A stretch of DNA of 57,974 nt from Bacteroidia bacterium (GCA_026391595.1 JAPLDY010000033.1:1-57974), one strand, 5' to 3'. Counted from the first letter of the stretch, positions 2,892-56,272 are shown. The notes: generated by a model from the sequence alone, not told the origin. Made by a program: numbers and translations.

Positions 2892-5423
2892 ATGAATAAA
2901 AAACGAATAATTCACCAATCTGTCAGTCTGTTATTTGTTTCACTATTAGTATTAAATTTTGTATCAGCAGACGCTCAGCGGCAAATGGAAAACCTGGGAC
3001 GAGGCATTGTTGCTGTTCGCACAGGCACAGGCTCCGTATTTATAAGCTGGCGCCTTTTAAGCCGCGATCCTGAAAACGTTGCCTTTAACGTTTATCGCCA
3101 AACAGATAATAAGAAGCCTGAAAAACTCAATTCACTACCTGTTACATCGGTAACTTATTTTATCGACGACAATGCCAATTTAACCTTGCAGACTGCTTAC
3201 TATGTGACAACCATATCCGAAAATTTGGAAGGTCCTTCATGTAAATCATTTATCTTACCGGCCAATGTATCACAGAGACAATATCTTGCAGTACCGTTAC
3301 AAATCCCGGAACCAGGAGATATCGCAGGGCGGAAGTACTATTATAGCGCAAATGATGCCAGCGTCGGAGATCTGGATGGAGACGGCGAATATGAATTTAT
3401 TTTGAAATGGGACCCATCCAACTCTATCGTAGCTGCACAGGGAGGCTTGACCGGAAATACAGTTATCGATGCCTATGAAATAAATGGGAAGTTGTTGTGG
3501 CGTATTGACCTTGGGAAAAATATCCGTTCAGGGCCTACGTACACTCAGTTCCTTGTGTATGATTTTAATGGTGACGGAAGAGCTGAAATGATTTGTAAAA
3601 CCGCTGATGGTACCATTGACGGTAAAGGCAACTTCATAGGTGATAAAGATAAAGACTGGAGGACTCTGGAATCTTCAGATCCAACCTTCGGAAGAATTGT
3701 CAAAGGCCCGGAGTTTGTAACTGTTTTTGATGGATTAACAGGTAGAGCCCTTGCCACAGAAACTTATATTCCTGAACGTTTTCCTCTCGACGGATGGGGA
3801 GGTATTGGTGGAAACGGAGGGAATGACACAAACGGCGGACGGAGCGATCGTTTTTCGGCCGGGGCAGCTTATCTCGATGGGGTTCACCCAAGTGCTGTAT
3901 TTGTTCGTGGCTGGTACGGCCGTACTGTAGTTGCCGCCTGGGATTACCTCGATGGGAAGCTCACCTCACGATGGGTGTTCGATTCAAAAAACAGTGAAAA
4001 TCCATACTCCGGGCAGGGCAATCACAGTGTCAGTGTTGCTGATGTGGATAATGATGGGAAGAATGAATTTTGCGTAGGAGCCATGACCGTGGATGATGAC
4101 GGCAAAGGGCTTTACACTACAGGCCTTCGCCATGGCGATGCCCTGCATATATCCGATATGGATCCATATCGTCCGGGATTAGAAGTATTTGGCATACATG
4201 AAAATGAAGGAAAGACAATTGAATTGAAAACACCTGGAGCGGCAATGTTTGATGCGAAAACCGGGGAAGTTCTGTTCAGCGTAGGACCTGGTGCAGATGT
4301 CGGACGAGGTGTTGCCGCTGATATCGACCCTGCTCATCCGGGTTTTGAAAACTGGGGTGGGCCCGGCGGACTGAGAGATGTGCATGGTGTAACAATAACT
4401 CCTAAAACACCCTCTTCGACGAACTTCGTAGTATGGTGGGATGGCGATCTCACCCGCGAACTTATAGATAAAAACCGTATTGATAAATGGGACTGGAACC
4501 TGGATAGTACGATAAACCTCTTAACCGCTGAAGGATGCGTCTCGAACAATGGAACCAAAGCAACTCCATGCTTAAGTGCAGATATCTTTGGCGACTGGCG
4601 GGAGGAAGTCATCTGGAGGACCCCCGACAATTCTGAATTACGCGTATATACGACAGTCATTCCCACTGACTACCGTTTCCGTTCATTTATGTGCGATCCG
4701 CAATATCGTCTCAGTATTGCCTGGCAGAATGTTGCATATAATCAACCTCCGCACCCCGGATTCTTTTTTGGTGAAGGGATGAAGTTATCTGCGCTAACAA
4801 ATACCGGTTATAAACTTTTTTTTGCTGACAATTTTAATAATCCCATTGATACAAATATATGGGTGCCGGAAATTGCTACTTTGCCTGATTCAAAAGTGTA
4901 TACGCAGAATGGGAAATTAGTTTTGGACACAAAAGGCGGTGTTACTGTCTGGTTAAAAAGACGCTTAAACGGTAATTTTATAATTGAATTCGACAGGAAG
5001 GTAATTGTGGCAAATGGCAAGAACGACCGCCTATCCGACCTGAATATGTTCTGGATGGCTACCGATCCTCGTAATCAGGATTTGTTCACCAGAAACGGGA
5101 TTCTCGAGAAATATGACTCCCTGCGACTTTATTATGTTGGCATGGGAGGGAACAATAACAGCACAACCCGTTTTAGAAAATACGAAGGTGATGGGACACG
5201 TAGACTTCTGCAGGAATATAAAGATGCTGAACACCTTCTTAAGCCTGACCATACTTATCATATTAAGGTAGTAATGGAGAACGGAAGCACCTCATTATGG
5301 GTAGATAGTATTTGTTACTTCGTCTATAAAGATCCTTCTCCGCTACGGGAAGGTTATTTTGGTTTTCGTTCTACATGGTCGCATCAGGAGATAAGTGGTT
5401 TCAAGGTTTTTTGTCACCAATGA
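2892..5423 (+). CDS. rhamnogalacturonan endolyase (PL11, YesW-like) fused to a C-terminal DUF1961/YesU-like domain
   Basis: Signal peptide, then the PL11-like propeller pattern (FNVYR..., SVGDLDGDGEYEFILKWDPSN, FNGDGRAEMICKTADG, VADVDNDGKNEF, ADIFGDWREEVIW, AWQNVAYNQPPHPGFF). The last ~220 aa (NIWVPEIA...GKLVLDTKGG...FGFRSTW) resemble the DUF1961 beta-sandwich family. Confidence 0.7.
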   Translation: MNKKRIIHQSVSLLFVSLLVLNFVSADAQRQMENLGRGIVAVRTGTGSVFISWRLLSRDPENVAFNVYRQTDNKKPEKLNSLPVTSVTYFIDDNANLTLQTAYYVTTISENLEGPSCKSFILPANVSQRQYLAVPLQIPEPGDIAGRKYYYSANDASVGDLDGDGEYEFILKWDPSNSIVAAQGGLTGNTVIDAYEINGKLLWRIDLGKNIRSGPTYTQFLVYDFNGDGRAEMICKTADGTIDGKGNFIGDKDKDWRTLESSDPTFGRIVKGPEFVTVFDGLTGRALATETYIPERFPLDGWGGIGGNGGNDTNGGRSDRFSAGAAYLDGVHPSAVFVRGWYGRTVVAAWDYLDGKLTSRWVFDSKNSENPYSGQGNHSVSVADVDNDGKNEFCVGAMTVDDDGKGLYTTGLRHGDALHISDMDPYRPGLEVFGIHENEGKTIELKTPGAAMFDAKTGEVLFSVGPGADVGRGVAADIDPAHPGFENWGGPGGLRDVHGVTITPKTPSSTNFVVWWDGDLTRELIDKNRIDKWDWNLDSTINLLTAEGCVSNNGTKATPCLSADIFGDWREEVIWRTPDNSELRVYTTVIPTDYRFRSFMCDPQYRLSIAWQNVAYNQPPHPGFFFGEGMKLSALTNTGYKLFFADNFNNPIDTNIWVPEIATLPDSKVYTQNGKLVLDTKGGVTVWLKRRLNGNFIIEFDRKVIVANGKNDRLSDLNMFWMATDPRNQDLFTRNGILEKYDSLRLYYVGMGGNNNSTTRFRKYEGDGTRRLLQEYKDAEHLLKPDHTYHIKVVMENGSTSLWVDSICYFVYKDPSPLREGYFGFRSTWSHQEISGFKVFCHQ

Positions 5424-22006: not shown

Positions 22007-22153
22007 CTCACGTACTCACCCCCTTAATCCCTCCCGCTGAAGCGGGACAGGCTCTTTCAGCTGAAGCAAAGAGGGGGAAATAGCTGGTATACAGTAAAAT
22101 AGCCCCCTTCTTTCCTTTAGGAGAGAAGGGGATTTGGGGGATGAGTACATGAG
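22007..22153. repeat. 147-bp intergenic element with imperfect terminal inverted repeats; member of the GC-rich repeat family
   Basis: CTCACGTACTCACCCCC (22007-22023) matches the reverse complement of GGGGGATGAGTACATGAG (22136-22153) at 15 of 17 positions. It contains the family core on the - strand (22032-22055, AGAGCCTGTCCCGCTTCAGCGGGA). Internal hairpins are CCCGC-TGAA-GCGGG and CCCTTCTTTCC-TTTA-GGAGAGAAGGG. Confidence 0.7.
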
Positions 22154-22159
22154 CCACCT

Positions 22160-30454: not shown

Positions 30455-30500
30455 CCTTCAAAAAGTAGAGGAAAGTATTATTATACAATAAAATAACTTT

Positions 30501-30574
30501 CTCCTCCTCCTCGGAGGAGAGCCTGTCCCACACAGCGGGAAGTACTCCCGACTTGTCGGGAGGGAGGTGGTGTC
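30501..30574. repeat. copy of the GC-rich repeat family (core AGAGCCTGTCCCACACAGCGGGA)
   Basis: CTCCTCCTCCTCGGAGGAGAGCCTGTCCCACACAGCGGGAAGTACTCCCGACTTGTCGGGAGGGAGGTGGTGT. The core at 30518-30540 matches the cores at 54917, 54980, 22032 (rc) and 55420 (rc). There is an extra hairpin CTCCCGA-CTTG-TCGGGAG. Confidence 0.65.
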
Positions 30575-30607
30575 AATTGAATTCATCCAAAGTAATATTT
30601 TTCCGGT

Positions 30608-42828: not shown

Positions 42829-42936
42829 CCTGCAAGACCTGCACGACCTGCACGACCTGCACGACCTGCAAGTCCTGCACGACCTGCAAGACCTGCACGA
42901 CCTGCAAGACCTGCACGACCTGCAAGACCTGCACGA
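42829..42936. repeat. tandem repeat, 9 bp x 12 (CCTGCAAGA / CCTGCACGA variants)
   Basis: Twelve contiguous units in the order A C C C A' C A C A C A C, where A=CCTGCAAGA, C=CCTGCACGA and A'=CCTGCAAGT. The array lies between two convergent stops (42815 and 42947). Confidence 0.9.
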
Positions 42937-42946
42937 CAATTCTTAA

Positions 42947-49859: not shown

Positions 49860-51065
49860 ATGATTGAAACAGGCCAACCAGCCGAAAAGGCAATCCTTAT
49901 AGGCATAAATTATCCGGGGCAGGACGAAAAAGAAACTGAAGATTTTATAAATGAACTTTCCTTTCTGGCTGAGACAGCAGGAGCTCTGCCGGTAAGGAGG
50001 TTTATTCAGAAGCTCACCATACCTGATCCCCGAACCTTCATCGGTTCAGGCAAAACACAGGAGATAGCCCGGTTTGTTGAAGATAATGAGATCAATATTG
50101 CGATCTTCGACGATGAGCTTTCAGCCAGCCAGATCAGAAACATTGAAAAGGCGTTTGGTTGCAGGATACTCGACAGGACAAACCTGATACTTGATATTTT
50201 TGCGCGAAGGGCCCGCACGTCGCATGCCCGTACTCAGGTCGAGCTGGCTCAGTATCAATATCTTCTGCCACGTCTGGCTGGCATGTGGACACACCTCGAA
50301 AGGCAACGCGGAGGTATAGGCCTGAGAGGTCCGGGTGAAACAGAAATTGAAACTGACAGGAGGATCATCAGGGATAAAATATCCCTTCTGAAAAAACAAC
50401 TTAAGAAAATAGATATCCAGATGACCACCCAGCGTAAGAACCGCGGAAAAATGGTGAGGGTTGCACTGGTTGGCTATACTAATGTTGGCAAGTCCACTAT
50501 CATGAACCTGCTTAGCAAATCAGAGGTTTTTGCCGAGAACAAGCTTTTTGCGACACTCGACACCACTGTCCGCAAAGTAGTGATAGGCAACCTGCCTTTT
50601 CTTCTTTCAGATACTGTAGGATTTATAAGGAAGCTCCCTCATGACCTCGTAGAATCTTTTAAATCAACCCTCGACGAGGTGAGGGAATCTGACCTGCTGA
50701 TCCATGTAGTTGATATATCCCATCCAGGTTTTGAAGACCAGATAAAAGTTGTCAACGAAACGCTCCATGACCTGAAATCGTCAGACAAACCATCAATCAT
50801 TATATTCAACAAGATAGATGCATTCTCCTATATAATTAAAGATGAATACGATCTTGCACCTGTTCAAAAAGAAAACTTTTCCCTTGACGACCTTAAGAAG
50901 TCCTGGATGGCTAATGACAGGAACCATCCGGTGGTCTTTATCTCAGCAAAAACAAAAGAAAATGCTGAAGAGCTGAGAAAGCTGTTGTATGAAGAGGTGA
51001 AAAAGATCCACATTACGAGGTATCCCTATAATGATTTTCTGTTTGATAACCCCCGACCATGCTGA
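49860..51065 (+). CDS. hflX: GTPase HflX
   Basis: HflX N-terminal domain (ELSFLAETAGA, IFDDELSASQIRNIE, ILDRTNLILDIFARRA). G1 GYTNVGKST, G3 DTVGF, G4 NKID. Confidence 0.92.
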   Translation: MIETGQPAEKAILIGINYPGQDEKETEDFINELSFLAETAGALPVRRFIQKLTIPDPRTFIGSGKTQEIARFVEDNEINIAIFDDELSASQIRNIEKAFGCRILDRTNLILDIFARRARTSHARTQVELAQYQYLLPRLAGMWTHLERQRGGIGLRGPGETEIETDRRIIRDKISLLKKQLKKIDIQMTTQRKNRGKMVRVALVGYTNVGKSTIMNLLSKSEVFAENKLFATLDTTVRKVVIGNLPFLLSDTVGFIRKLPHDLVESFKSTLDEVRESDLLIHVVDISHPGFEDQIKVVNETLHDLKSSDKPSIIIFNKIDAFSYIIKDEYDLAPVQKENFSLDDLKKSWMANDRNHPVVFISAKTKENAEELRKLLYEEVKKIHITRYPYNDFLFDNPRPC

Positions 51066-51068
51066 AGC

Positions 51069-51158
51069 ATGGCCTGCCCCCTAAAGGGGGCTATAAACCC
51101 AATCGAAACTATACTACGTAATGGATTTTAACCCCCCTTTAGGGGGGCAGGGGGGCAT
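51069..51158. repeat. 90-bp inverted-repeat element made of two GCCCCC-TNNA-GGGGG hairpins
   Basis: ATGGCCTGCCCCCTAAAGGGGGCT (51069-51092) pairs imperfectly with the reverse complement of AACCCCCCTTTAGGGGGGCAGGGGGGCAT (51130-51158). It fills the gap between the convergent hflX and asd stops. Confidence 0.7.
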
Positions 51159-51162
51159 CTTA

Positions 51163-52152
51163 CTAGTAGAGTTTCTTTTCCACCATATACTCCGCAATCT
51201 GGACTGCGTTTGTGGCTGCACCTTTGCGGATATTATCAGACACAATCCAGAGGTTGAGGCATTTTTCCTTAGAGAGATCCCTTCTTATTCTTCCTACAAA
51301 CACCTCATCCCTGTTGTGTGATAGTATAGGCATAGGGTATTTATTCGTTGCAGGATCGTCATAAATGATATTACCGGGGAACTCACTGATCAATCTCCTG
51401 ACCTCATCAATATCAAAATCTTTTTTGAACTCGACGTTCACAGCCTCGGAATGGCCTCCAACAACGGGTATCCTGGCAACCGTAGCTGTCACCATTATGG
51501 TCTGATCTTCAAGTATTTTGCGAGTTTCATCAATAAGCTTCTGCTCTTCTGAAGTATACCCGTCAGCCTGAAATGATCCGCCGTGAGGGAAACAATTCAT
51601 GTCTATAGGATAAGCATAGGCCATCTCTCCCTTGATGCCGTTTCTCTCATTTTCCATCTGTTTAACAGCCTTCAAGCCTGTTCCTGTAACCGACTGGTAC
51701 GTGGCTATAACAAGCCTTTTTATTATATACTTCCTGTGAAGAGGAGCAAGTGCCATCACCATCTGGATGGTAGAACAGTTTGGATTTGCAATTATCCTGT
51801 CGCCTTTTTTGAGTACGTGGCTGTTTATTTCGGGAACAATAAGCGGAACATTCTTGTCCATTCTCCAGAATGAGGAATTGTCAATGACAATAGTGCCGTT
51901 CCTGGCAAATTCAGGTGCCCACTCTTTTGAGGTGGATGCTCCTGCTGAGAATATGGCAAATACGGGTTTTGCATCGACAGCATCCTGAACGCTTACAACT
52001 TTTACCGGTTTACCCTTGAAAATAATTTCCTTGCCTACCGACTTCTCGGATGCAGCAGGTATTAATTCAGTTACAGGGAAATTTCTTTCTTCAAGGACTT
52101 TCATCATTGTCCGGCCAACCATTCCGGTTGCTCCAACAACAGCTGTCTTCAT
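51163..52152 (-). CDS. asd: aspartate-semialdehyde dehydrogenase
   Basis: KTAVVGATGMVGRTM, IIANPNCSTIQMV (active-site Cys), ATYQSVTGTG, GHSEAVNVEF, SDNIRKGAATNAVQIAE. Confidence 0.93.
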   Translation of the reverse strand: MKTAVVGATGMVGRTMMKVLEERNFPVTELIPAASEKSVGKEIIFKGKPVKVVSVQDAVDAKPVFAIFSAGASTSKEWAPEFARNGTIVIDNSSFWRMDKNVPLIVPEINSHVLKKGDRIIANPNCSTIQMVMALAPLHRKYIIKRLVIATYQSVTGTGLKAVKQMENERNGIKGEMAYAYPIDMNCFPHGGSFQADGYTSEEQKLIDETRKILEDQTIMVTATVARIPVVGGHSEAVNVEFKKDFDIDEVRRLISEFPGNIIYDDPATNKYPMPILSHNRDEVFVGRIRRDLSKEKCLNLWIVSDNIRKGAATNAVQIAEYMVEKKLY

Positions 52153-52246: not shown

Positions 52247-54862
52247 ATGAAAAAAGTTATTTTACTGCTTTTGTTTTTTCCTTATTTGTCATTCGGTCAG
52301 ATCGCTGATGATTTTGAAACTGGTACAATCTCAAGCTGGACTGAAGGAGTGGTAAATCATTGGAAAGCAGATTCTGCCGGATGCATCAACGGCAATTTTT
52401 CACTTCATCATATTTTTGATAATCCTTCAAGCGGCTCAGACTGTATCGGATTGCCACTTACAAACCTTCATCCCGCAGAAGGAACGACCAGATGGACATT
52501 CAGGGTAAGGCATGGATATGATCCGTCAGCATCAAACAACTGGTCGGTTTTTCTGATGTCCGATCATGGTCCGACGGATTTTAACGGAGGCTCAGCTGTA
52601 AGCGGATATGCAGCAGGAGTCAACCTTTCGGGTTATGACGACACTCTTCGTATATGGAAATTAAAGAAGGGTTCTGTGACTGTTGTTGCAACATGCCTTG
52701 TAAACTGGCAAAACGATATTGGAACGTTAAAAGCTGCGAAATTAGTTCTTGAAAGAAGCAACGCCGGAGAATGGGGAATAACAGTTTATGACAACTATAA
52801 TAAACTCCTGGGAACTGCTTCGGGTTACGATCCTGAATTGTTCAACACGGCATGGATGATGTTGGATTACAGGTACACTTCAACGCGCGACAGGCTTCTC
52901 TGGTTTGATGATCTCAGAATTGAGGGCGTTTTTTATAAAGACTCCGCTCCACCAGAGGTGTCCCTGACCAGGATTACAGGTACGAATTCGCTTGAGCTTA
53001 CATTCAATGAAGACCCGTCGGATGATATTCTGAATCCGTTACTTTTCTCTTTAAATGATGGCGCTGACCTGCCTGTTTCGGTTAAGCGAAAAGCACCCGC
53101 TTTAATAGAGGTCCGCTTTAAAAACTGTTTCATCAATAAGACAAAAAACCATCTGACCATAGGAATGCTGTGTGACAGAACAGGAAATTGTACGGCAAAA
53201 GCAGAAATTGAATTTACACCCGTCTGGGTGGAAACTGCTGATGTAGTAATATCCGAGATAATGGCCGATCCTATGCCAGCAGTCTCACTACCCGAAAAAG
53301 AATATCTTGAATTAACCAACCGGACGGAGTTTTCATTCAACATTAATAACTGGATCATGGCAGCCGGGAGCCAGAAGTCAATCTTACCGTCAGCAGAGAT
53401 TGGCCCTGGCGAGTTTATGATATTATGTTCCATTAATGATACCTCTCTCTTCTCAAAATACGGAAAGACAACAGGAATTAAATCATTCCCTTCCCTTTAT
53501 GATGAAGGCAAGGTGATATGGTTATCAGACTCTTCAGGCAATTTAATTCATGGTGTTGAATATTCTTCAAGCTGGTACGGTGTGAAGCTTAAAGAGGATG
53601 GGGGCTGGTCGCTTGAAATGATCGATACCCGTTCGCCATTTTTCACTGAAGGAAACTGGGAAGCCTCTTCCTCAAAAATAGGAGGTACCCCCGGGAAAAT
53701 AAATTCAGCATCAAGGACGAATCCGGATCTGTTTTTTTACGGGATTGAAAATACATTCCCGTCAGATAGTGTTACCATAACCCTTGATCTGTCGGAAACA
53801 ATTACTGATTTGGCCGGGCAAAATGAAAAAATCCTTGTTGACGATGATATTGCAGAATCGGTCTTTCCCACTGATCCGCTTCTGAGGGAATTCATTATTA
53901 AGCTGAAAAAGCCTTTGTCAAAAGAAAGAGAATCCACATTTTTCCTGACTGGTGATGTACATGATTTTTCAGGCAATGAAATAACCCGGCGATCGAGCTG
54001 GTTGGGAATTCCGGAAACTGCTTCTAAGGGCGAGATTGTTTTTAATGAGATACTCTTCAACCCTTTTCCTGAAGATCCGGATTTTATCGAATTTTTTAAC
54101 TGCTCGGAAAAGATTGTTGATCCTTCACGGCTTTACCTTGCATCAATAAACTTTGAAACAGGTGACACGTCTGATATAAATGCTGTTTCTGCTGCCCATC
54201 GGTGCATAATGCCTGGATCATATTACGTTGCAACTGTTGACAGGAGCAGGATAATTGCAAGATACCCCGGTTCAGTTCCGGAAAATATTTTCAATACAAC
54301 CCTTCCGTCGATGCCTGACGACAGGGGCCATCTATTGCTCCTGAACAGGGAAATGGAAGTTATTGATGAGGTCATTTATAGTGAAGATATGCATTATTCC
54401 CTTCTTTCCGGTAAAGAAGGTGTATCTCTTGAAAAGATCAGACCGGAGATACTGTCTGCAGAAAGCATGAACTGGCACTCGGCTTCGGAAAGTTCAGGGT
54501 GGGGGACCCCGGGGACTGTAAATTCAGTATTCAGCCTTGCTCCCCGGTCCGCCGACAGGATTCGCTTTTCTTCAGGCAGGATCTCCCCTGATAATAATGG
54601 GTTTGAGGATGTGCTGGTAATTGACCTTGATTTGGAAGGGACAGGCAATGTAGTGACCATTACGATATTTGATGAGAAGGGAGGATTTATCAGGCGAATA
54701 GTGGAAAACTATCTTGCCGGAGAAAAAGCATCAATAGTCTGGGATGCCACTGCAGATGACGGATCACTGGTAAACTCAGGGATCTATATTGTTTTTATAG
54801 AATTATATAATGATAAGGGCAAAATAAAATCCTGGAAGAAAGTATGTACGGTTGTAAGATAA
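52247..54862 (+). CDS. large secreted protein with two lamin-tail-domain (LTD)-like modules and a C-terminal beta-sandwich sorting-type domain
   Basis: Signal peptide. LTD-like segments are VVISEIMADPMPAVSLPEKEYLELTN and IVFNEILFNPFPEDPDFIEFFN. The C-terminal ~80 aa (ITIFDEKGGFIRRIV...GIYIVFIELYNDKGKIKSWKKVCTVVR) resemble FlgD-Ig/T9SS C-terminal domains. Confidence 0.7.
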   Translation: MKKVILLLLFFPYLSFGQIADDFETGTISSWTEGVVNHWKADSAGCINGNFSLHHIFDNPSSGSDCIGLPLTNLHPAEGTTRWTFRVRHGYDPSASNNWSVFLMSDHGPTDFNGGSAVSGYAAGVNLSGYDDTLRIWKLKKGSVTVVATCLVNWQNDIGTLKAAKLVLERSNAGEWGITVYDNYNKLLGTASGYDPELFNTAWMMLDYRYTSTRDRLLWFDDLRIEGVFYKDSAPPEVSLTRITGTNSLELTFNEDPSDDILNPLLFSLNDGADLPVSVKRKAPALIEVRFKNCFINKTKNHLTIGMLCDRTGNCTAKAEIEFTPVWVETADVVISEIMADPMPAVSLPEKEYLELTNRTEFSFNINNWIMAAGSQKSILPSAEIGPGEFMILCSINDTSLFSKYGKTTGIKSFPSLYDEGKVIWLSDSSGNLIHGVEYSSSWYGVKLKEDGGWSLEMIDTRSPFFTEGNWEASSSKIGGTPGKINSASRTNPDLFFYGIENTFPSDSVTITLDLSETITDLAGQNEKILVDDDIAESVFPTDPLLREFIIKLKKPLSKERESTFFLTGDVHDFSGNEITRRSSWLGIPETASKGEIVFNEILFNPFPEDPDFIEFFNCSEKIVDPSRLYLASINFETGDTSDINAVSAAHRCIMPGSYYVATVDRSRIIARYPGSVPENIFNTTLPSMPDDRGHLLLLNREMEVIDEVIYSEDMHYSLLSGKEGVSLEKIRPEILSAESMNWHSASESSGWGTPGTVNSVFSLAPRSADRIRFSSGRISPDNNGFEDVLVIDLDLEGTGNVVTITIFDEKGGFIRRIVENYLAGEKASIVWDATADDGSLVNSGIYIVFIELYNDKGKIKSWKKVCTVVR

Positions 54863-54893
54863 CCCCCACCTCGGAAGAGCTTGGGGTAGTTAC

Positions 54894-55019
54894 TTTTTTG
54901 AAAATCCCCTCCTTGGAGAGCCTGCCCCGCGGCAGCGGGGGGTTTGGGGTGGGTTCTTTTTTGAAAATCCCCTCCTTGGAGAGCCTGCCCCGCGGCAGCG
55001 GGGGGCTAGGGGTGGGTTA
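54894..55019 (+). repeat. 63-bp tandem direct repeat x2 of the GC-rich repeat family; copy 2 is the left inverted repeat of the DUF559 gene
   Basis: TTTTTTGAAAATCCCCTCCTTGGAGAGCCTGCCCCGCGGCAGCGGGGGG(TTT/CTA)GGGGTGGGTT occurs at 54894-54956 and 54957-55019. Cores lie at 54917-54940 and 54980-55003. The array starts 32 nt after the LTD gene stop. Confidence 0.9.
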
Positions 55020-55037
55020 ACTAGCGAAAACCAAATT

Positions 55038-55460
55038 ATGTTAAATAAACGCAAAATACTGTCTTATAATCCTGATCTAAAAGAACTTGCAAATGAACTT
55101 CGAAAAAATATGACTCTTTCTGAAGTTTTGCTCTGGAATGAACTTAAACAAAAGAGGATGTTAGGATTTGATTTCGACAGACAACGGCCAATAGGAAATT
55201 TTATAGTGGATTTCTATTGCAAAGAACTATGTCTGGCAATTGAAATTGATGGTGATACACATATATTTAGATATGATTATGATGAGGAGAGACAAACTAC
55301 TCTTGAAAAAATGGGAGTACACTTTTTAAGATTTGATGATATAGAAGTTAAAAAGAATATATCAAATGTATTAAGAGTAATTGGGGATTGGATTGTTATA
55401 AACAAACCCACCCCTAGCCCCCCGCTGCCGCGGGGCAGGCTCTCCCAGGAGGGGATCTAA
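55038..55460 (+). CDS. DUF559 (Vsr-like endonuclease fold) domain protein
   Basis: ELRKNMTLSEVLLWNELKQKRMLGFDFDRQRPIGNFIVDFYCKELCLAIEIDGDTH...GVHFLRFDDIEVKKN is the classic DUF559 pattern. The last 17 codons (PTPSPPLPRGRLSQEGI) are encoded by the right inverted repeat. Confidence 0.85.
   Translation: MLNKRKILSYNPDLKELANELRKNMTLSEVLLWNELKQKRMLGFDFDRQRPIGNFIVDFYCKELCLAIEIDGDTHIFRYDYDEERQTTLEKMGVHFLRFDDIEVKKNISNVLRVIGDWIVINKPTPSPPLPRGRLSQEGI
55405..55456 (-). repeat. right inverted copy of the 52-bp GC-rich repeat
   Basis: The reverse complement of 55405-55456 is ATCCCCTCCTGGGAGAGCCTGCCCCGCGGCAGCGGGGGGCTAGGGGTGGGTT. It matches 54967-55018 at 51 of 52 positions. Confidence 0.9.
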
Positions 55461-56272
55461 AGGGTCGATATCATCTCCGTCATCAATGCTGTCATGCGCT
55501 CTTCGGTTTTGGCAGCCTCATCGAGAACAGACTGATGAGTCGTATAGGCGATTTTTCCTTCAACGCCAAGGTCTGTGATGATACTCACTGCAAAGACCGG
55601 CAGGTTCATATGACGGGCAACTATAACTTCGGGTGTTGTAGACATACCCACGGCATCAGCCCCAATGATCCTGAAATACTTGTACTCAGACGGTGTCTCA
55701 AAAGTCGGTCCGCTCGTTGAAAGATAAACTCCCTTATGAACTCTTATCTTCAGGTCTTCAGCAATAACAAGCGCTTTTTTAATCAGGTATTTGTCATAAG
55801 CTTCCCCCATATCCGGGAAACGTGCACCGATACGATCGTCATTCGGACCGATAAGAGGATTTGGCAGCAAGTTAATGTGATCTGTTATGATCATTATGTC
55901 GCCTATCCGGAATGTGGGATTGACTCCCCCGGCAGCATTTGAGAGGAAAAGACATTTGATTCCCAGATATTTCAGGACTCTTACACCGAGGGAAACCTGT
56001 TCCGGGCCATAACCTTCATAATAATGAAACCTGCCCTTCATGGCAACAATTTTCTTTTTTCCGAAATCACCATAGATAAGCTTTCCTGCATGTCCTTCAA
56101 CTGTCGAAACAGGAAAATTAGGGATGTCCCTGTAGTCTATTTCAAGACAATTTTCCATTTTGGCAGTAAGACCGCCAAGACCTGTTCCCAGGATTATTCC
56201 AGCATCGGGATTAACAATTCCCTTCGCCTTAAGAAACTCTGTTGTTTCGTTTATTTTTTCTAACATAATCAA
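55457..56272 (-). CDS. purine nucleoside phosphorylase (PunA-type)
   Basis: GIILGTGLGGL, STVEGHAGKLIYG, MKGRFHYYEGY, LSNAAGG, GPTFETPSEYKYFRIIGADAVGMSTTPEVIVARH. Confidence 0.9.
   Translation of the reverse strand: MIMLEKINETTEFLKAKGIVNPDAGIILGTGLGGLTAKMENCLEIDYRDIPNFPVSTVEGHAGKLIYGDFGKKKIVAMKGRFHYYEGYGPEQVSLGVRVLKYLGIKCLFLSNAAGGVNPTFRIGDIMIITDHINLLPNPLIGPNDDRIGARFPDMGEAYDKYLIKKALVIAEDLKIRVHKGVYLSTSGPTFETPSEYKYFRIIGADAVGMSTTPEVIVARHMNLPVFAVSIITDLGVEGKIAYTTHQSVLDEAAKTEERMTALMTEMISTL

Follow-up and report, generated by a model that had tools for sequence, protein, structure and literature searches.

Why should a small gene for a putative nuclease be held between two nearly identical, oppositely oriented copies of a GC-rich hairpin repeat, one of which runs into the end of its own reading frame? 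The question is raised by a DUF559 gene in a 57,974-nt stretch of DNA of a Bacteroidia bacterium (GCA_026391595.1, JAPLDY010000033.1:1-57974; this whole stretch is referred to as "the window"), where it is lodged between a gene for an LTD protein and a convergent gene for a purine nucleoside phosphorylase (PNP). The layout recalls the "REPtrons": genes for RAYT/TnpA(REP) proteins (RAYT stands for REP-associated tyrosine transposase, REP for repetitive extragenic palindrome) that are flanked by palindromes of the REP and BIME (bacterial interspersed mosaic element) kinds (Ton-Hoang et al. 2012, PMC3333891; Corneloup et al. 2021, PMC8266576). Comparing the gene, its repeat and its site with their counterparts in other genomes leads to the answer that is elaborated here: the locus looks like one copy of a widespread, self-contained nuclease mini-cassette, REPtron-like in layout and either selfish or domesticated.

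The bracketed gene

The DUF559 gene is an intact open reading frame (ORF) of 140 codons, whose stop overlaps that of the convergent PNP gene. Its two arms, 54967-55018 and 55405-55456, are each 52 nt long, and the first agrees with the reverse complement of the second at 51 of 52 positions. The left arm is the proximal member of a tandem array (54879-55018; period 63, 2.2 copies, 92% matches), and the upstream tandem copy, taken as 54904-54975, forms a second and looser pair with the right arm (72 nt, 86% identity). The right arm supplies the last ~17 codons of the gene, up to the stop, so that residues 123-140 are repeat-encoded. Much of this had been described in the initial annotation (the match between the arms, the 140-codon frame with its 19-bp left spacer, the C-terminal codons contributed by the right copy, the 63-nt duplication of the left copy) and is borne out by sequence comparison, by Pfam and by the coordinates of the parts, which, with the two neighbouring genes placed last, are these:

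54863-54893, plus strand: distal, degenerate third copy of the repeat (CCCCCACCTCGGAAGAGCTTGGGGTAGTTAC), beginning directly past the LTD gene stop and part of the 2.2-copy array
54904-54955, plus strand: upstream unit, tandem copy 1, of the long variant; in direct repeat with the proximal copy (63 nt, 94% identity), composed of an outer CCCCTCC..GGAG, a nested hairpin AGCCTG-CCCCGC-GGCA-GCGGGG-GGC and the G-box GGGGTGGGTT
54967-55018, plus strand: proximal upstream unit, the left arm
55019-55037, plus strand: A-rich spacer of 19 nt between G-box and ATG
55038-55460, plus strand: gene for the DUF559 (Vsr-like PD-(D/E)xK) nuclease, 140 aa; domain at residues ~14-122 (PF04480)
55405-55456, minus strand: downstream unit, the right arm, coding for the tail KPTPSPPLPRGRLSQEGI and adjoining the PNP stop
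52247-54862, plus strand: LTD / CHU_C T9SS-type protein (Pfam), the upstream, co-directional host gene
55457-56272, minus strand: PNP family protein (Pfam PNP_UDP_1, E=4.5e-50), the convergent host gene

An arm consists of an outer C-rich/G-rich hairpin (CCCCTCC..GGAG), a 6-bp hairpin (CCCCGC-GGCA-GCGGGG) nested within AGCC..GGCT, and the G-rich box, which is oriented toward the gene. Beside the units of relatives this proves to be a "long" variant; far more common is a shorter form, TCCCCTCC-nn-GGAGGGG-nnn(n)-GGGGTGGGTT. As single-stranded DNA the left arm is computed to fold at -14.5 kcal/mol, with the nested 6-bp hairpin included.

Several simpler accounts of these features were considered and set aside. 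Chance or faulty assembly as the source of the inverted repeat is rejected because genomes of many phyla, assembled independently, show this architecture again. The C-terminal tail is not a conserved protein motif, since the upstream, inverted copy has the same DNA without coding for anything and the tail is predicted to be disordered. Two small ORFs (54844-55020, plus strand, and 54890-55054, minus strand) are rejected as artefacts of the repeat, and an Rfam search of 54700-55600 at permissive E-values returns only sub-threshold chance matches.

Is the encoded protein likely to be a working nuclease? The match to PF04480 is strong (E=1.3e-29, residues 14-115, 102.7 bits against a cutoff of 20.6); Pfam matches of this gene are to DUF559 and MTES_1575 only, with no transposase domain. 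The closest solved sequence is that of an uncharacterised DUF559 protein (PDB 3HRL, E=9e-15), which is also, at TMt 0.84, the top Foldseek match of an AlphaFold2 model of the protein (pLDDT 80, pTM 0.73; tail residues 129-140 disordered), together with 3r3p, the catalytic domain of I-Bth0305I (TMt 0.78-0.80). The modelled fold is restriction-endonuclease-like, of the PD-(D/E)xK class; the structure of E. coli Vsr itself (PDB 1VSR) is a weak match (TM 0.49, E=0.11). Of the residues of the catalytic motif, E69, D71 and H75 do not vary among 71 homologs, in which conservation of D58 is 90% or more, and the motif VDF ... EIDGxxH aligns to VDF..EADGGQH of 3HRL: the catalytic motif is retained, and the protein is predicted to be competent as a nuclease. 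Its homologs are called "very-short-patch-repair endonuclease" by metagenome pipelines; the annotation of the window links no cytosine methyltransferase with the DUF559 gene. PADLOC families give no match at E<=0.01, PHROGs give weak matches only, and no close relative of the protein was found on viral contigs.

DUF559 genes and their repeats in other genomes

At E<=1e-5 the window protein has 4,872 relatives, the best 120 of which are 66-84% identical to it; 80 loci fetched from GTDB genomes make up the family sample. Under a strict definition (a perfectly paired GC hairpin, then GGGGTGGGT with one mismatch allowed), 43 main-clade loci can be assessed: 30 of them have the unit on both sides of the gene and another 7 have it on one side, while the background count is 0 of 573 random windows. 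The repeat is not confined to the window, and bracketing by it is general in the family; of the three findings that the initial annotation named as fatal to its own reading, none turned up in the analysis. The common plan is a hairpin (CCCCTCC..GGAGGGG), a 2-4-nt spacer and the box, forward in the upstream unit (where the box lies 4-33 nt from the ATG in relatives) and inverted at the 3' end of the gene. Tails of the "KPTPxPSxEGN" (PTP) type, found in 110 of the best 120 homologs, are the unit read in frame, often with a repeat period of ~21 aa, and the long "RGRLS" (RGRL-type) variant seen in the window recurs in 12 of the 120. Tandem arrays of units are common, forward upstream and inverted downstream, with their distal copies decayed; decayed distal copies are also typical of the orthologous cassettes discussed below.

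Does this repeat belong to the gene, or to the genome at large? Few units lie farther than 0.7 kb from a DUF559 gene (~5 in ~400 kb, that is, in the flanks of about 8 kb at ~50 loci), and in the same ~50 loci units are near-universal, standing at nearly every DUF559 gene end. Several DUF559 paralogs occur per genome, at unrelated sites, and homology between paralogs of one genome or contig is limited to the module, starting at the first base of the unit upstream and extending to the one downstream. In a Marinimicrobia metagenome-assembled genome (MAG) the whole cassette is tandemly duplicated (L051, 4001-5220): two identical 149-aa DUF559 genes, 770 nt apart, have three forward units in between. 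The rarity of distant units, the module-bounded homology of paralogs and this duplication of an entire module indicate that the repeat goes mostly with the cassette; over the flanks covered, it does not look like a REP family of the genome at large. At more than 8 loci, in different phyla, an entire doublet (inverted unit, 60-100-nt spacer, forward unit; 100-170 nt in all) is directly repeated on both sides of the gene with 92-96% identity; by analogy, these flanking doublets are the counterpart of the BIMEs beside a RAYT.

The window itself had been thought to hold dispersed copies of the repeat, with a core gap of 2-4 nt. The core AGAGCCTGYCCCRC-N(1-4)-CAGCGGG does occur there five times, where none is expected by chance: three times at the cassette, and at 22033-22055 (minus strand) and 30518-30539 (plus strand). 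At 30518 the gap is 1 nt instead. Dispersal holds only in a weak sense: with up to three mismatches allowed, the full 23-nt core has sites at the cassette only, and what the two outlying sites have in common with it is the nested-hairpin core, their outer hairpins and G-boxes being different.

In distant DUF559 clades the order of hairpin, spacer and G-box, inverted at the far end, is kept while the sequences are other. Eight types of box map onto clades of the protein tree:

Type A: GGGGTGGGT (Bacteroidota, Chlorobiota, Nitrospirota, Marinimicrobia)
Type B: GGGGGTTGT
Type C: GGGGGATTT (a Limnohabitans MAG and Cytophagales)
Type D: GGGGAGGT
Type E: GGGGTAGTT
Type F: GGGGTGGT
Type G: GGGGTGTT
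Type I: GAGGGATT

Box type tracks the clade of the protein, not the phylum of the host, and in nearly every locus with both arms typed the two are of the same type (in the two exceptions, L041 and L077, closely related boxes are mixed). The hairpin stems vary between clades yet remain perfectly complementary: CCCCTCC/GGAGGGG, CCCCCTT/AAGGGGG, CTCCTC/GAGGAG, CCCCTTCT/AGAAGGGG. (A technical note: the case for compensatory stem changes rests on these per-locus perfect stems because MAFFT mis-registers hairpins of unequal stem length; RNAalifold, run on the resulting unit alignments, finds 4 pairs and scores 1 compensatory pair.) What the comparison of clades shows is a cis element of the cassette, co-diversifying with the nuclease.

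Two observations made on the same material may be recorded separately. At two loci of the MAG CAWBNA01 (L047, ~4230-5030; L049, ~4230-5190) an insert interrupts the DUF559 gene at one and the same codon, after GDTHIYR. The inserts, of 0.8-1.0 kb, carry toxin-antitoxin pairs, by eye YefM/YoeB-like in L047 and nucleotidyltransferase/HEPN-like in L049, and have short terminal inverted repeats (TAGCTTGC/GCAAGCTA; TAGGTACAATTG/CAACTGTACCTA), and the 3' remainder of the gene follows with its unit after each insert. The second observation is that many contigs with close DUF559 homologs are very short (0.5-2 kb) and that several PNP contigs end inside a unit (e.g., L085, L107, L128, L156), which suggests that the cassettes break short-read assemblies.

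Occupants of the LTD/PNP junction

What does the same site hold in relatives? In a sample of 80 metagenome loci with PNP orthologs 81-92% identical to that of the window, the LTD/PNP junction proves to be polymorphic, and the empty sites whose existence the initial annotation had left to be looked for are among its states. In empty junctions (L088, L117, L124, L149, L138 and others) the two stops overlap or lie 20-40 nt apart. At four loci (L083, L086, L081, L103) there is a solo hairpin, CCCCTCC..GGAGGGG, with neither box nor gene. Ten loci in addition to the window have the DUF559 cassette, in a single orientation (11/11). Nine (L090, L099, L100, L106, L109, L120, L123, L148, L152) have instead a 123-aa gene of the GxxExxY/PDDEXK_3 family (TIGR04256, PF13366) with inverted repeats of its own, ACCACAAAGG..CACAAAGG upstream and CCTTTGTG..CCTTTGTGGT downstream, and footprints of these repeats without the gene are found at L142, L157, L127, L144, L083 and L091. 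A four-helix-bundle gene (PF05635, "23S rRNA IVS protein", IVS being an intervening sequence), bracketed by GGTTAAGGTTGAGG.. / ..CCTCAACCTTAACC inverted repeat arrays, is present at L111, L122, L130 and L131, and its hairpins alone at L091, L097, L098, L126, L129, L134 and L136; its presence here suggests that IVS-type cassettes are common outside rRNA. An ORF6N gene is a further occupant. The window has its one DUF559 gene, and no GxxExxY or four-helix-bundle gene was found in it. A second conserved site of DUF559 cassettes is seen in six Bacteroidales MAGs (L003, L006, L007, L009, L014, L016), between co-directional genes of ~500 and ~630 aa.

Might the inverted repeats serve to flip the gene, as a programmed inversion switch that makes its expression phase-variable? 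"DUF559 domain-containing protein" is enriched, in a systematic screen, among predicted programmed-inversion targets, with an odds ratio of 14.3 (PMC9881135), probably as a by-product of the inverted repeats that DUF559 genes carry, and one of the four-helix-bundle cassettes, that of L122, is indeed reversed at the junction. The uniform orientation of the eleven DUF559 cassettes there speaks against a switch, as do a strong orientation bias across loci, the independent divergence of the two arms in their loops and spacers, and the lack of an invertase nearby, the neighbours being the LTD and PNP genes. Programmed inversion must be considered very improbable.

The history of the junction is one of persistence and loss. 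A PNP neighbour-joining tree (crude, and with no support values) separates the DUF559 cassettes and their solo-hairpin footprints, which group in one part, from the remaining cassette types. L086 and its sister L008 share their flanks, and a single hairpin stands in L086 where L008 has the cassette; L088, the sister of L093 and the closest of the empty sites, has the right-arm GAGGGGC fused to the end of the LTD gene, and therefore looks like a deletion derivative. Relatives hold the cassette at this same junction with saturated synonymous divergence. To judge from these alignments, the cassette at the LTD/PNP junction is ancient, vertically inherited, and repeatedly lost or replaced. The suggestion that the locus "fits an insertion" needs to be amended in this light: it is true in the long run, and not of any recent event at this site.

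How strongly is the cassette maintained? Among nine cassettes at the orthologous junction the median dN/dS is 0.09, dS ranges from 0.8 to saturated, and identity at 4-fold degenerate sites is 42%; the 23 core positions of the unit (7+7+9) are identical in 8/8 upstream and in 7/8 downstream proximal units. Invariant cores in the face of saturated synonymous sites, together with the low dN/dS, place gene and units alike under purifying selection. The loops and spacers vary, and the arms of the orthologs are not complementary to each other there: on this comparison, conservation acts on the sequence of each arm rather than on perfect pairing between the two. The window is unusual in the near-perfect match of its arms. 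Its closest orthologs, L082 and L093, have short units; that both window arms and the tandem copy share a genome-specific long variant implies recent copying between units in the lineage of the window.

Selection of this kind is also what an ordinary host gene would show. The DUF559 protein could be a Vsr-type housekeeping repair nuclease, with the hairpins as bidirectional terminators or mRNA-stability elements of a convergent junction: the dN/dS, the long vertical inheritance at one site and the location between convergent genes all suit such a gene, and a terminator scan finds one terminator-like site, which overlaps the distal degenerate copy. The difficulties lie with the several paralogs per genome at unrelated sites, with presence and absence among close relatives and replacement by other cassettes, and with a distribution that spans phyla. 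The unit is no easier to accommodate: its G-box is invariant, it has no T-tracts, and what a terminator requires is structure, not a conserved 9-mer that co-varies with the clade of a protein. The host-gene explanation is quite improbable.

A different rival takes its cue from repeats that have no gene, of which the window has these:

22010-22155: orphan, gene-less doublet with its G-boxes outermost, ACGTACTCACCCCC...GGGGGATGAGTAC
22014-22082: inverted half of this doublet, carrying the nested core
22098-22150: forward half of this doublet
30500-30580, plus strand: orphan unit, diverged, that shares the nested core (AGAGCCTGTCCCACACAGCGGG) but has another G-box, between two plus-strand genes

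The doublet at 22010-22155 aligns end to end with a doublet at the LTD/PNP junction of another genome, L095, and solo doublets therefore occur at different sites in related genomes. The two represent a family (ACGTACYC..CCCCC hairpins ..GGGGGATGRGTAC) that is found at unrelated sites in the two genomes, the window copy having the nested-hairpin core inserted into its left half; it is a repeat like a REPIN or a miniature inverted-repeat transposable element (MITE). Units and doublets might thus be REP/MITE-like elements whose movement is due to recombination or to an unlinked enzyme, with DUF559 genes as trapped or riding passengers. Gene-less doublets are what one would expect of such elements, several hairpin types do gather at the same intergenic junctions, and three unrelated gene families share one layout. 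The opposing facts are that box type follows DUF559 clade across phyla, both arms changing together, that units are rare away from DUF559 genes in the ~400 kb of flanks, and that paralogs share gene and units as one block. A passenger gene is improbable.

Other repeats of the window are mentioned for completeness. At 51066-51162, between convergent genes (49860-51065, plus strand; 51163-52152, minus strand), there is a further type of hairpin plus G-box, CCCCCCTTTAGGGGGG-CA-GGGGGGCA, with near-identical copies elsewhere in the relatives L094, L112, L120, L123 and L159; no associated gene was identified for it. At 42829-42937 there is a tandem repeat with a 9/18-nt unit (CCTGCAAGACCTGCACGA; 6-12 copies, 89-95% matches).

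The bracket may also be considered at the level of RNA. The nearest long upstream ORF runs in the same direction as DUF559 in 50 of 60 loci (binomial p=8e-8; the count is ORF-based and approximate), and a promoter scan offers no convincing site, whether between the array and the ATG or within the array upstream. A co-directional upstream gene and the want of a promoter-like site fit expression by read-through, for which the LTD gene is the likely source in the window, as far as can be predicted. In the resulting RNA (54880-55470) the 51/52 complementary arms are computed to pair over their full 52 nt in a panhandle (minimum free energy -227 kcal/mol, z=-10).

Is the cassette, then, an RNA device comparable to an IVS? 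Its arms would pair in the read-through transcript and RNase III would cut the stem, releasing or destroying the nuclease mRNA and insulating the host genes, with the repeat conserved for this role. There is precedent in the Coxiella-type IVS of 23S rRNA, in which terminal inverted repeats on either side of a small ORF form a 28-bp stem that RNase III cuts (PMC4990558), and the PF05635 family, with its own inverted repeat, is found at the very same junction in relatives; the computed panhandle and the location of cassettes downstream of co-directional genes are in keeping with the idea, and the 23 conserved positions would still pair even in the orthologs. However, the loops and spacers of ortholog arms differ and are non-complementary, and stems and box are invariant within a clade instead of covarying, which points to sequence recognition rather than to pairing alone. 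Nor do the mismatches on the sense strand show the excess of G.T over C.A that pairing in RNA should favour (~6 G.T versus ~7 C.A outside the loop-closing pair, a comparison of low power). An IVS-like device is on balance unlikely; it could coexist with the recognition and copying of units that is proposed below, and inversion, the host gene and the passenger are all less likely than either of these two.

Cutting, copying and known relatives

How might such a cassette multiply? The scheme that we propose has the following steps: 1) The DUF559 protein would recognise its own hairpin-plus-box, as RAYTs recognise the REP hairpin and its GTAG. 2) Cutting or nicking at the unit would lead to duplication of units, and occasionally of the whole cassette, into other intergenic, terminator-like sites. 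3) The enzyme having no strand-transfer domain, host repair or recombination would resolve the cuts. 4) The gene, lacking a promoter of its own, would be expressed by read-through from the co-directional gene upstream. 5) Once inserted, a cassette would be kept for long and be inherited vertically. 6) Loss would occur by deletion between unit sequences and leave solo hairpins or doublets behind. For the combination of recognition by DUF559, duplication through cleavage and host repair, and deletion to solos, we consider the chances evenly balanced.

A number of points weigh against this scheme. That the DUF559 protein recognises the unit, and that a nuclease cuts or moves the repeat, is something we infer, and a 120-aa PD-(D/E)xK nuclease cannot transpose alone. 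Neither a consistent target-site duplication nor a consistent target consensus is seen at the family loci. No very recent transposition was caught: the one identical protein that was traced (P0009) is found on 12 contigs, in a single place. Four loci (L019, L021, L031, L039) have their downstream unit in direct orientation or have no strict units. Most copies look old and vertically inherited, which makes host-level selection as plausible as selfish spread. Finally, the four-helix-bundle family, not an obvious DNase, has the same architecture and its own repeat at the junction, and the bracket may therefore have a role that needs no DNA nuclease.

A bolder generalisation can be entertained: there would be a second class of REP/BIME-like systems, one without HUH enzymes, in which DUF559 proteins like this one serve as the dedicated nucleases, each clade nicking or cutting its own unit (as extruded hairpin or cruciform, or as single-stranded DNA) and so driving the duplication of units, doublets and its own gene, and the GxxExxY (PDDEXK_3) and four-helix-bundle cassettes would be parallel systems with their own repeats. 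This we regard as doubtful and advance tentatively. If it were true, it would explain the abundance of such genes in Bacteroidota, Chlorobiota, Nitrospirota and other phyla.

Why does any of this matter? DUF559 is a very large family of small nucleases without assigned function; a major branch of it travels with a clade-matched hairpin-plus-box repeat, and this repeat is a candidate substrate for the enzyme. The association links DUF559 to REP/RAYT biology and to the intervening sequences of rRNA. Intergenic "junk" hairpins and proline-rich C-terminal tails in these phyla become readable as parts or footprints of cassettes, with consequences for annotation, for the understanding of assembly breaks, and for screens in which genes flanked by repeats are scored as programmed inversions. 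A search of the literature on DUF559 found no description of this arrangement, the nearest thing being a table entry in the inversion screen (PMC9881135), and searches on GxxExxY and on the four helix bundle with IVS found nothing relevant.

The cassette can be placed by its likenesses and differences. E. coli Vsr has the same class of fold; the DUF559 genes differ from it in being multi-copy and repeat-bracketed, and the one in the window has no link with a cytosine methyltransferase. Transposons of the insertion-sequence and MITE types also have terminal inverted repeats, but the cassette has no transposase and shows no consistent short target-site duplication; where direct repeats flank it, they are whole doublets. 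MITEs and REPINs, the comparison class reportedly treated by Bertels and Rainey in 2011, are approached by the solo doublets, which consist of two inverted units with terminal G-box inverted repeats and occupy varied sites in related genomes; no target-site duplication is seen in this case either, and the doublet boxes differ from the boxes of the window's DUF559 cassette.

I-Bth0305I, the second-best structural match, is a homing endonuclease of the EDxHD family (PDB 3R3P), in the same Vsr/DUF559 group of PD-(D/E)xK nucleases (PMC3424549). DUF559 genes resemble homing endonuclease genes in being small, selfish-looking and polymorphic in their presence; unlike them, they have no intron or intein, no separate DNA-binding domain and no single conserved target gene, and are bracketed by repeats of their own at many unrelated intergenic sites. 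Like the cassette, the 23S rRNA IVS encloses a small ORF in terminal inverted repeats that can pair into a long stem; it has a sporadic distribution in which horizontal acquisition is followed by vertical retention, and PF05635 relatives that share the LTD/PNP junction. It differs in its residence in rRNA, the DUF559 cassette lying between protein-coding genes, and in the families of its ORF and repeat; the DUF559 units, moreover, are conserved in sequence and not only in pairing.

REPtrons come closest, and the initial comparison with them survives in part: inverted palindromic units do bracket the gene, while the enzyme is a Vsr-like PD-(D/E)xK protein and not an HUH/Y1 transposase, and a high-copy dispersed REP family is unsupported (few orphan units in ~0.4 Mb of flanks plus the window, as against hundreds per genome). 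RAYT genes are single-copy, whereas here gene and units are multi-copy and duplicated as a block, and the tag lies 3' of the hairpin, facing the gene. "REPtron-like" fits the architecture; the mechanism is an unproven proposal. The likenesses are nonetheless extensive: 1) the gene is bracketed by inverted palindromic units, often in doublets or arrays; 2) the hairpin has a short tag at its foot, GTAG in REPtrons and the G-box here; 3) the type of repeat is matched to the clade of the enzyme; 4) REPtrons are inherited vertically and leave their repeats behind when lost (PMC3333891), and the vacancy may be filled by another small cassette, hicAB in E. coli (PMC3333891; PMC8266576), just as GxxExxY or four-helix-bundle genes take the place of DUF559 here.

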